Part shown: positions 61,123 to 64,000 of the stretch, piece after piece | Position numbering within the stretch: position 1 is the first letter of the stretch | Layout of the letters: every line of letters begins with the position of its first letter | NCBI RefSeq assembly: GCF_042408735.1 | Contig: NZ_JBHOQV010000156.1 | Coordinates: forward strand, 78,442 to 142,441 | Origin: Thermogemmatispora sp. | GTDB lineage: Bacteria > Chloroflexota > Ktedonobacteria > Ktedonobacterales > Ktedonobacteraceae | Length of the DNA: 64,000 nt | Direction of reading: 5' to 3' | The notes under the pieces: generated by a model | Told to the model about the DNA's origin: nothing | Database searches by the model: none | What the model saw: only the letters and a program-made list of their open reading frames with translations | Translations under genes and position numbers: made by a program

Positions 61123-61941
61123 ATGTCCATCAACTGGCAAAAGGTCTGCGATTATCAGGACATTATTTTCGAAAAGGCCGAGGGCATCGGCAAGATCACC
61201 ATCAACCGCCCAGAAGTTCATAACGCTTTCCGCCCAGAGACCCTGAGCGAGATGATCGACGCCTTCAACCGCTGTCGCGAGGACCCCGAGATCGGGGTGG
61301 TGATCTTGACGGGGGCCGGCACGAAAGCCTTCTGCTCGGGAGGCGACCAGCGCGTGCGCGGCGAGGGTGGCTATGTCGATCAGGGCGGGGTGCCGCGTCT
61401 CAACGCCCTCGATCTGCAGAAGGTTATTAAGTATCTGCCCAAGCCCGTCATCGCGATGGTCGCCGGCTATGCCATCGGCGGCGGCCACGTGCTGCATGTG
61501 CTCTGCGACCTCACGATTGCCGCCGATAATGCGCGCTTCGGCCAGGCGGGGCCGCGCGTGGGCAGCTTCGACGCCGGCTGGGGCGCCACTATGCTGGCGC
61601 GTATCGTGGGCCATAAGAAGGCCCGCGAGATCTGGTATCTTTGTCGCCAGTATAGCGCTCAGGAAGCCTATGAGATGGGCCTGGTCAACAAGGTGGTGCC
61701 TTTGGAGCAGCTAGAGGAGGAGACCATCAAGTGGGCCAGGGAGCTGCTGGAGAAGAGTCCCACGGCTCTGCGCTTCTTGAAGGCAGCCTTCAATGCTGAT
61801 ACCGATGGCCTGGCCGGCCTGCAGGACCTGGCCGGCAACGCCACTATGCTGTTCTATATGACTGAGGAGGGCAAGGAAGGGCGCAACGCTTTCCTGGAGA
61901 AGCGCAAGCCGAATTTCTCCAAGTTCCCACGCCTGCCCTAG
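61123..61941 (+). CDS. menB: 1,4-dihydroxy-2-naphthoyl-CoA synthase
   Basis: FCSGGDQ, YAIGGG, GSFDAG, AREIW. Confidence 0.96.
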
Positions 61942-61944
61942 CCC

Positions 61945-62390
61945 TGAGCCGCGAGCCGACTCCTTGAGGGCCTCCAGCCCATGCAGCACATCGGTCAGCA
62001 GCAAGTGCCCGCTGGCCCCGGCCCAGCGGCCGAGCGGGACCGGGATGTCCTGGCTGACGACGTCAAGGCAGCCGGCCTGGGTGAGCAGGTCTCCCAGTCG
62101 GTGCAGGACCTCCCTCTCAAAGCCCAACTGCCGGCTGATGCTGGTGAACCAGTCCAGCAGGCGCCGGGTGGCCGGTCCGGCAGGCTGGATGAGATCGCTG
62201 AGTTCCAACAACTCGATCCAGCCGCCCGAGCGGGTGACGCGCACCAGCTCCTGCACGACGGTGGGCCAGGCGCGGGCAGGAATGGCCGCCACGAGGAGGC
62301 CCTGATGGGTGTAGCAGAACTGGCCGGAGGGAAACGGGAGGCCCTCCAGGACGTTGGCCCGCACAAAGACGCAGGTGGGCGGGACCGGCT
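61945..62390 (-). pseudogene. C-terminal remnant of a class I SAM methyltransferase (paralogue of 55115-55930)
   Basis: VRANVLEGLPFPSGQFCYTHQ...ELVRVTRSGGWIELLE...IPVPLGRW. No SAM motif I upstream and no stop before the frame runs antisense into menB. Confidence 0.65.
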
Positions 62391-62959
62391 GCGGCAGGGA
62401 TTGGAGGGATCCAGGCGAGGCAAGCCGGGGCCGCGTCCCAGGACTGTTTGAGGGCCGGAGCCCCTGGCCGGTCTCTCGGCCTGACCGGAGAAAGGGGAGC
62501 GTCCTGAAGGCAGGTGAGCCGCGCCTGGCTCGGGGGAGCGCGCCCCGCCTGGTCCAGGCCAGGAGCGTCAAGGCCCTCGCTCCTGGCACGGTGCTTCCGG
62601 CAAGGCCCCTTCTGGAGCGAGGGAAGCCGGCCTCGGAGGCGAGGCCTCTCGTCAGGGGGAGGTGAGACCCAGTCGCAAGGGGGATCACAGAGCCAGCTCC
62701 TGACCAGGCTGGGATGGTGGTTGCTCCGTTCCCTCACACGTGCTCCATGCTCCTGCCGTGGTGCCACCGGCGCTGGGACCTGACCGTCGAAGACAGGGGG
62801 AAGGAAAGACACCGCGTCGGGGAGACCGGGAGACCTCCCCCCTCCACCATGGCCCATGTGAGGGCCTGATTCGAAACTCGTTCGAGGCCAGCGTCTGAGC
62901 CACTCCAGGCTGGCCCGATCGGGCCGAAGAGCTGCAGTTCTTGCCGCTGAAGTCATCTG

Positions 62960-63147
62960 AAAGAGGCTGGTGCTTCCTCGAAACTCGCCCCTTGAGCGCT
63001 GCAGCCAACGAGTTTCGAGGCGAGCCGTCAGAGAAGGGGAAATGAGGGGGGAAGCGGGAGATGGCGAGGCGCTCAGCTGCCAAAAACGGGGCCTGAATCG
63101 TTAGAGCAGATGGAAGATGTATCCCGGAGGGGTTTTCGAGGGGGTCG
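62960..63147 (+). promoter_or_regulatory. Probable CRISPR leader
   Basis: Non-coding segment directly 5' of the intact repeat. Contains a 12-bp inverted repeat (62976-62987/63009-63020). 5' limit approximate. Confidence 0.45.
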
Positions 63148-63266
63148 GTTGCAGAGGCTTCGATCCGCTTCAGGATACTGAAATTCATCTTTCTCTTCCA
63201 TATTTCGTACCGCCCGTTGCAGAGGCTTCGATCCGCTTCAGGATATAGAAATCAGGATACTGAAAT
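63148..63266 (+). CRISPR. Orphan CRISPR mini-array: two 37-nt repeats, one 31-nt spacer, plus a 14-nt partial repeat
   Basis: GTTGCAGAGGCTTCGATCCGCTTCAGGATACTGAAAT (63148-63184); spacer 63185-63215; second repeat with 2 substitutions (63216-63252); CAGGATACTGAAAT (63253-63266). ATCC/GGAT stem followed by an 8-nt tail. Confidence 0.8.
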
Positions 63267-63267
63267 T

Positions 63268-64000
63268 ATGCTCGATAGGCTGGCTGTCGAAGCTATTGAC
63301 TGGCAGTGCTACTGCCTGTCGCTGCGCGCCCCCTTCCGTACTGCTCACGGGCTGCTGACTGCCCGCAGGGGAGCAATCATCGAGGTGAAGGGGGCCGGCG
63401 GCAGCCTGCAAGGCTACGGAGAGCTGGCACCGCTGCCGCCCTTCAGTCCCCCGCTGGAGCGTACACTAGCCGCTCTGCCTACGCTGGCCAGCCGCCTGCA
63501 GGGTATGTCGCTGGCCGCCGCGCTGGCACTTCTTGAGAGGGAGCAGGAAAGGGCCGATAGCCACCTGCCAGCGCCGGTGACCTTCGCTCTGGAAGTTGCC
63601 TTGCTGGACCTGCAGGCCCGCGCTGCCAGACAAGGTCTGCTGGCCCCCTATGCCCGCAGCGCCGTTCCCGTCAACGCCGCGATTGGCGTTGCTGCTCCCC
63701 CCGAGGCCGCCCAGGCCGCTCGCCAGGCAGTGGCCTCCGGCTTTCGCTGCCTGAAGCTGAAGCTGGCAGGAGCCGGTAAGGAAGGAGAGGACCTGGAGCG
63801 CCTGGCGGCGGTGCGCGCCAGCATCGGCCAGAATATTACCCTGCGTCTGGATGCTAATGCGAGCTGGAGCCTTGCCCAAGCCGAACAGATGCTGCGCGCC
63901 TGCGCTCCCTATGGGGTCGAGTACGTCGAGCAACCGCTTGCCGCCGACGACCTGGAAGGACTGCGCCAGCTCCGTCGTCGCTCTCCCGTTCCCATCGCCG
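63268..64000 (+). CDS. menC: o-succinylbenzoate synthase, 3'-truncated by the window end (absent from the ORF track)
   Basis: MLDRLAV...LRAPFRTAHG...GELAPLPPFS...CLKLK...LRLDANASW...EYVEQP, all in one frame from ATG 63268. Confidence 0.9.
   Translation, partial: MLDRLAVEAIDWQCYCLSLRAPFRTAHGLLTARRGAIIEVKGAGGSLQGYGELAPLPPFSPPLERTLAALPTLASRLQGMSLAAALALLEREQERADSHLPAPVTFALEVALLDLQARAARQGLLAPYARSAVPVNAAIGVAAPPEAAQAARQAVASGFRCLKLKLAGAGKEGEDLERLAAVRASIGQNITLRLDANASWSLAQAEQMLRACAPYGVEYVEQPLAADDLEGLRQLRRRSPVPIA

Follow-up and report, generated by a model that had tools for sequence, protein, structure and literature searches.

Near the right end of a 64,000-nucleotide (nt) stretch of DNA from a Thermogemmatispora sp.—hereafter the window, part of the 175-kb contig C2 in a 5.77-Mb assembly of 211 contigs—a small CRISPR array stands directly before the start codon of menC, the o-succinylbenzoate synthase gene of the menaquinone operon. 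Having compared this locus with seven congeners and three further genomes of the family (labelled G001–G005 etc.; G005 is T. carboxidivorans), we consider it likely that a segment of a CRISPR locus, placed at the menC start, supplies translation initiation to the gene, and that events of this kind recur in the genus by ectopic recombination.

The element has the layout that a first-pass annotation of this DNA had described, and every coordinate of that description was correct. Specifically, a leader is followed by a 37-nt repeat (repeat 1; 63148-63184, + strand; GTTGCAGAGGCTTCGATCCGCTTCAGGATACTGAAAT), an AT-rich spacer of 31 nt (63185-63215, +), a degenerate terminal repeat with two mismatches (repeat 2; 63216-63252, +; ...GGATATAGAAAT), in whose tail ACTG has become ATAG, and an exact 14-nt tandem copy of the repeat 3′ end (CAGGATACTGAAAT; 63253-63266, +), after which a single T precedes the menC ATG at 63268. 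Not one match to the repeat arose in 100 shuffles of the window, so the repeat layout is not a product of chance, and two 37-nt repeats that are 95% identical and enclose a 31-nt spacer conform to the definition of a CRISPR array (repeats of 23-47 nt, unique spacer) at the minimum repeat number for one. All three repeat copies of the mini-array end in T (226 of the 233 repeats compared across the genome end in G), and its spacer is the shortest in the genome, the 213 spacers compared otherwise measuring 34-42 nt with a mode of 36. No Rfam family matched within 62800-63400.

Repeat and leader alike tie the element to the CRISPR arrays of its own genome. Repeat 1 differs at two positions from the repeat of the long arrays on contigs C52 and C55, the only two arrays within three mismatches; nine arrays (C52, C55, C17, C16, C92, C160, C138, C27, and C99, with 8-45 repeats each, and at least nine arrays overall) fall within eight mismatches, and the repeat family totals about 230 repeats in the genome. 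The leader, of about 320 nt (62828-63147, +), was recognized by alignment with the leaders of other arrays. Its conserved 90 nt adjoin the first repeat, and it holds a conserved inverted repeat, CTCGAAACTCG...CGAGTTTCGAG (62976-63020). Homologous leaders precede arrays of the same genome on C52, C27, C160, C17, C16, and C80 as well as three other mini-arrays of two repeats each (C38, C156, and C42), and each of the seven congeners has two to seven of them, nearly all in front of multi-repeat arrays. Of the 157 columns that 30 leaders have in common, 7 deviate in the leader next to menC and 6-14 in the large-array leaders of its own genome. Judged by this alignment, it is no less well preserved than large-array leaders and is a genuine CRISPR element of this genome, as the first-pass annotation had supposed.

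The array stands where the men operon of the relatives has almost no intergenic DNA. From the menB stop to the menC start there are 1,326 nt here and 13-35 nt in the seven congeners (11-35 nt when the three other family genomes are included), and among the genomes compared, the contiguity of the two genes is broken in this one only; this was the comparison of relatives that had been proposed as a check. Gene order thus reads menD-menH-menB, insert, menC-menE, and the inserted DNA, about 1,313 nt, lies between a remnant of the native 5′ untranslated region (UTR) and the ATG. On its left, the open reading frame (ORF) of menB (naphthoate synthase; 61123-61941, +; stop TAG at 61939-61941) retains a C-terminus kept in all congeners. 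It is followed by 13 nt that the junction alignment assigns to the native menB-menC spacer (61942-61954, +), within which GAGCCGCGA (61946-61954) recurs in T. carboxidivorans and in G003 as the last 9 nt up to and including the A of the menC ATG. This match is suggestive of a native spacer remnant at the left junction and, as it ends at the A of the ATG, would place the insertion essentially at the start codon and the native 5′ UTR 1.3 kb upstream. On the right, menC (63268-64000, +, running beyond the window end, 371 amino acids as a whole, then menE) is intact: its product matches Pfam MR_MLE_C (8e-27) and weakly MenC_N, the K-x-K, D, E, D, and K motifs are readable, and identity to its orthologues is 71-77% in six congeners and 56% in the seventh (G004). 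The N-terminal length is the same in six congeners, so the ATG at 63268 is the orthologous menC start.

The insert as a whole is pieced together from sequences that also flank CRISPR arrays on other contigs of this genome, and it differs by 7-20% from every other copy there. Its left part is an internal piece, truncated at both ends, of a gene resembling those of S-adenosylmethionine (SAM) methyltransferases (61957-62409, −). The fragment has no Pfam match and is 80-93% identical to paralogues on C186, C200, C21, and C146, full-length members of which extend beyond it on both sides. Next comes a pre-leader (62389-62827, +), with counterparts upstream of the C160 array (86%) and on C21 (89%). 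Mapping by blastn against C21 located the joint between the two at a 22-nt sequence, GCTGCGGCAGGGATTGGAGGGA (62388-62409, +), which is present twice on C21, 6.3 kb apart: window positions 62131-62409 correspond to C21:6992-6714 and positions 62388-62799 to C21:415-1. Parts that are separated on C21 are therefore joined at the 22-nt sequence in the menC insert, and the intervening DNA is absent. C21 itself (6,992 bp) carries the pre-leader joined to a full-length methyltransferase-like gene through the 6.3-kb stretch, which encodes an HD-domain-like protein, a NUDIX-like protein, and two helix-turn-helix (HTH) proteins; it is probably the flank of another array and resembles the donor of the menC insert.

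A mobile element was considered as the vehicle and rejected. Common left ends, terminal repeats, and target duplications were sought among the leader-plus-mini-array modules and none was found, nor was a transposase; only the leader, over about 170-320 nt, is common to all copies. TATG directly follows three of the four leader-bearing mini-arrays (C2:141707-141711, C156:94037-94040, and C42:20415-20418) and is a real start codon at menC only; this shared tetranucleotide suggests either a common trailer or a use of ATG microhomology at the right junction.

Within this arrangement, the ribosome-binding site (RBS) of menC would be part of the CRISPR sequence. The motif AGGA at 63254-63257 (−14 to −11), inside the partial repeat and 10 nt from the ATG, is the only one resembling a Shine-Dalgarno (SD) sequence in the last 20 nt, as the first-pass annotation had observed. 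AGGA-N10-ATG is also the arrangement of the native menC RBS in six congeners, i.e., the partial repeat supplies the same motif at the same spacing. The 16S tail carries the canonical anti-SD (CCUCCUUU; recorded also as GGAUCACCUCCUUUCU), and the motif lies where a working SD would be expected (5-13 nt before the start). Because the 120 nt preceding the ATG are all repeat-spacer-repeat sequence and the native RBS is displaced by 1.3 kb, any RBS of menC must be repeat-derived. Thermogemmatispora uses menaquinone. A search of the genome for the MqnA/MqnD family of the futalosine pathway found no member, and as menC is intact besides, the gene should be expressed through the repeat region. That the repeat supplies the menC RBS, as first proposed, is on these comparisons well supported, though not proven.

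The partial repeat was not recruited for menC in particular, contrary to what had initially been thought. Tandem partial copies of 14-17 nt, one to three in number, follow the terminal repeats of other arrays and mini-arrays of the genome (C38:27216-27339, C42:20174-20414, C17:37486-37532, C138:5169-5215, and C99:830-907) and occur at many of its solo repeat units; an array of T. carboxidivorans (G005:C1:~1479400) has them too, as apparently do its orthologues in two further species. As they recur at array ends and solo units, the 14-nt copy at menC arrived with the inserted module. Each tandem copy matches the local variant of the repeat (CAGG, GAGG, or GCGG), and an integrase footprint, slippage, or an RNA-mediated origin are possibilities for their cause. 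Handles of the same length, 14 nt, have been reported in one Synechocystis system. In tails whose first base is G, the duplication produces GAAAGGAGGA at the tandem junction, a canonical SD sequence.

Repeat-tail units in comparable positions recur at other genes, in this genome and in its relatives. Outside the large arrays, a profile search located about 46 sites of the solo or mini type. Three of those in the source genome lie just ahead of coding sequences: the units at a response regulator (C39:68423-68465) and a HEAT-repeat protein (C39:77350-77400) end 0 nt from the start codon, and the unit at an Rrf2 regulator (C190:19899-19931) ends 9 nt upstream of it; Pfam domains begin at residue 7 of the response regulator and residue 3 of the Rrf2 regulator, which supports these two start codons. 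Among the relatives, units at a distance of 0-7 nt precede dnaX and two further genes in G004, and the orthologue of the HEAT-protein gene in G001 and G002 (G004:C116:8240-8300, G004:C134:1480-1530, G004:C26:7146, and G001:C2:1878380). The source genome's own dnaX and one other orthologue have no unit, so those two cases represent independent events, and since the HEAT-protein unit is common to three species, it is old and retained.

Further units lie inside the 5′ leaders of metX (C205:111024-111066), serS (C171:74783-74834), and a gene for an EF-G-like protein (C25:25322-25375), all on the minus strand. The first is situated between a TTGACA-N17-TATACT promoter and a SAM-I riboswitch, the second in the variable stem region of a T-box leader, and the third just after the promoter; each takes the place of a short segment that otherwise varies hardly at all among the seven congeners, none of which has the unit, and each is thus lineage-specific. 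All of the units named so far—at menC, at metX, serS, and the EF-G-like gene, and at the start codons—are co-oriented with their gene. A diverged leader with a mini-array of two or three repeats and a palindromic spacer (C42:20174-20414) also lies 214 nt upstream of leuC, co-oriented with it. Taken by its positions, the repeat tail (GAGGAUACUGAAAG) resembles in its behaviour a portable cassette that provides translation initiation or a leader.

The sequence of events that we envisage would then run as follows. In one lineage, a copy of about 1,313 nt from a different CRISPR locus within the genome would have been placed immediately 5′ of the menC start codon, this segment comprising the internal methyltransferase-like piece, the pre-leader, the leader, the repeat-spacer-repeat unit, and the 14-nt partial repeat; comparison with the relatives indicates that menC was thereby split from menB and from its native 5′ UTR. 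Elimination and the same comparison suggest that menC translation would now start at the repeat tail, with AGGA and an A/U-rich 10-nt spacer as in the native RBS. Transcription of menC-menE would come from a leader promoter, from menDHB read-through, or from both, with no terminator between, and the Cas6 of this genome would be expected to cut both repeats and so yield a menC mRNA with a short leader. Elsewhere in the genus, repeat-tail units may have spread by ectopic recombination from the many arrays.

Such processing presupposes a CRISPR system, which the genome has at a distance from menC. A search of contig C2 for Cas1, Cas6, and RAMP families returned nothing, and to this extent the early description of the mini-array as an orphan without cas genes stands; it applies to position only, because cas genes sit elsewhere in the genome. 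Contig C175 encodes a type III-D set—a Cas10-like protein, Csx10, two Csx7-type Cas7 proteins, Csx19, TIGR03986, and a SAVED effector—in which Csx7, Csx19, TIGR03986, and SAVED score above the NCBIfam cut-offs and Cas10 and Csx10 below them, and C85 holds a partial second copy of the locus. No array adjoins the type III-D locus in this fragmented assembly, so its pairing with the repeat family at menC is one that we infer. A stand-alone Cas6 with a G-rich loop (GVGYKTPMGMG) is encoded at C46:79303-80286; it was found through TIGR01877 and then PF10040 (53.8 bits) and PF19308 (31.7 bits), each score exceeding its cut-off, whereas a Pfam search with PF01881 had found no Cas6. The first-pass annotation had suggested searching the genome for the same repeat and for cas6; arrays of the repeat family and a cas6 gene are present.

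Two other genes belong to this inventory. The 10-kb contig C188 carries a lone Cas1 of 453 amino acids (C188:1651-3012) with no recognizable cas neighbours and no Cas2. The SAVED domain is C-terminal in a 610-amino-acid protein (C175:8746-10578) encoded directly after the type III-D effector genes, and this protein is likely an effector activated by cyclic oligonucleotides.

Several observations weigh against the explanation that we prefer. With so atypically short a spacer and a degenerate repeat 2, the mini-array may be in decay. A scan of 61800-63400 for sigma-70 promoters and terminators predicted none, i.e., no promoter in the leader or elsewhere in the insert, and the pattern of leader conservation singled out no promoter either. 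The folds of the repeats, and those of the processed and unprocessed menC 5′ region, are not better than those of shuffled sequences, and the hairpin is weak. AGGA is only 4 nt long, and its position could reflect coincidence plus survivorship. Among the solo repeat units, co-orientation with genes (16 vs. 9 of 22 strong hits, counted with a crude ORF criterion) is only suggestive, and survivorship in intergenic DNA alone would place many units upstream of genes and would explain part of the pattern.

A more far-reaching version of this explanation, in line with what was first proposed for the locus, holds that the CRISPR parts were co-opted as a complete regulatory unit: the leader would be the main promoter of menC-menE, a Cas6 cut in repeat 2 would set a 23-nt 5′ UTR, and menaquinone synthesis would be tied to CRISPR, possibly to the point of addiction to Cas6. 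We hold this version to be tentative and on balance doubtful. It gains from a leader conserved like those of large arrays, from the absence of room for a terminator, from the presence of a Cas6 gene, and from the repeat units in the leaders of several other essential or housekeeping genes. However, read-through from menDHB is unobstructed, and for menC transcription it is equally possible as a leader promoter. The G-richness of the insert on the sense strand, looked at with Rho-dependent polarity in mind, favours neither side. The tail of repeat 2 is degenerate (ATAGAAAT vs. ACTGAAAG), and the cut at 63244/63245 is arithmetic on an assumed 8-nt handle. The ATCC/GGAT hairpin has 4 bp and is not the minimum-free-energy structure, and its variants display little covariation (the C99 stem has 5 bp, and the C42 stem is kept by a wobble pair). 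Moreover, in one Synechocystis type III-Bv system RNase E does the processing and handles are 13-14 nt long (PMC12464536), so the handle in the present system may be of another length.

Extended to the genus, the same idea would have the GAGGAUACUGAAAG tail, often in tandem and then reading GAAAGGAGGA, repeatedly exapted as a cis-acting 5′-leader and translation module of housekeeping and regulatory genes, with menC, dnaX, the Rrf2 and response regulators, the HEAT protein, and the metX, serS, and EF-G-like leaders as instances. Since the portion of the repeat that Cas6 recognizes is retained in the units, such mRNAs would be Cas6 substrates and the expression of essential genes would depend on Cas6 or be tuned by it. 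We regard this generalization as speculative and rather unlikely in its full form.

The opposite view, that an ordinary small or decaying immune array came to lie beside menC by chance, with expression by read-through, a fortuitous AGGA, and an insertion that is merely tolerated, also seems to us improbable, though it has evidence in its favour. Mini-arrays with the same leader occur in unrelated contexts, convergent with neighbouring genes (C38 and C156), and the short spacer and degenerate repeat suggest decay. The spacer, moreover, is similar to an HTH gene present in several copies, which would be expected of an ordinary spacer: it runs antisense to the portion encoding the HTH in a gene on short repeated contigs (C139:258-279 and C162:267-279), agreeing at 23 of 31 nt overall and at 20 of the last 22, a match of borderline significance (E 0.33) that could represent a diverged protospacer in a mobile element. 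However, with the native RBS 1.3 kb away, any expression of menC requires that some part of the repeat region recruit ribosomes, and menC is intact in a genome where MqnA/MqnD was not found. Recurrence of the same repeat tail right before other start codons likewise counts against a chance neighbour and for our preferred explanation, a CRISPR-locus segment that supplies translation initiation.

It is very improbable that the mini-array encodes a regulator of the CRISPR RNA (crRNA)-like type known from CreA, CreR, and crlRNA, with the spacer guiding a Cas effector to repress a host promoter. Its layout—two repeats, one of them degenerate, with a single short spacer—is that of such regulators (PMC8501985, 10.1101/2023.03.03.530964). 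However, the element is neither in nor near a cas locus, and the effector of this genome is of type III-D, which targets RNA. The best match of the spacer in its own genome, 22 nt with two mismatches, falls in the coding region on repeated contigs, and its other matches there, the cas locus included, are 11-13 nt long and at chance level. As a crRNA-like regulator the element was therefore set aside, having neither a promoter-complementary spacer nor a position in a cas locus. Least credible of all is an assembly artefact joining repeated CRISPR-flank sequence into the men operon, for while the insert consists of the kind of multi-copy sequence that breaks many contigs of this assembly, its two flanks on this 175-kb contig are the neighbours that synteny predicts (menB to the left, menC-menE to the right), and it differs by 7-20% from every other copy.

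The menC element falls among the orphan CRISPR mini-arrays, with which it shares a leader and a repeat-spacer-repeat unit lacking adjoining cas genes, and repeats the same as those of cas-served arrays. Unlike others of that class, it abuts a housekeeping start codon, has a partial repeat at the RBS position, and belongs to a segmental copy with a non-CRISPR flank. In its working, the closest parallel is an insertion carrying expression signals of its own. Insertion elements supply outward promoters or RBSs to neighbouring genes; there, as here, inserted DNA replaces the expression signals of the downstream gene, and only insertions that keep expression survive. The donor in the present case, however, is a CRISPR-locus fragment, found with no transposase, terminal repeats, or target duplication. 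Among CRISPR systems, the type III-Dv CRISPR2 of Synechocystis (named in PMC12464536) is alike in its set of Cas10, Csx10, Csx7-type Cas7s, and Csx19. Its repeat, too, is 37 nt long and ends in ...ACTGAAA(G/C). The genome studied here differs in that its Cas6 is stand-alone and its arrays are scattered.

Ectopic repeats that have acquired a non-defence role are known from CreA/CreTA, CreR, and crlRNA, where they give rise to crRNA-like regulators (PMC8501985, PMC9458426, 10.1101/2023.03.03.530964). Like the units described here, these involve degenerate repeats outside normal arrays. In contrast, theirs lie in cas loci and act in trans as guides to promoters, whereas menC-type units lie in cis, in the leader or RBS, and no complementarity to a target was found. 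The Racr RNA anti-CRISPRs are solitary repeat units of phages (PMC10651486) and resemble the present units in being repeat-derived and scattered singly outside arrays. They differ in being phage-encoded decoys; the units here belong to the chromosome, run in the same direction as housekeeping genes, and are in part conserved from species to species. A search of the literature on read-through from arrays and on repeat-derived RBSs found no precedent, and the recurrent placement of CRISPR repeat tails in cis, as leader or RBS of core genes, appears to be new.

This placement is what gives the finding its wider interest, as ectopic repeats have so far been known as trans-acting guides or phage decoys and here take a cis leader or RBS position in several independent events. 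Among these, menC is the clearest natural experiment, its native RBS displaced, the gene intact, and MqnA/MqnD not found; as the relatives are cultured thermophiles, RNA end mapping and reporter assays would be straightforward. Functional units would mean that CRISPR arrays can furnish genes with translation-initiation cassettes that are already complete. If the mRNAs that carry them are processed, Cas6 could act on ordinary messages and link immunity to genes of menaquinone synthesis, replication, and translation, a new form of coupling, or even addiction, between a CRISPR system and core metabolism. Even if the units are merely tolerated, they would still show CRISPR fragments spreading by ectopic recombination through an array-rich genome.

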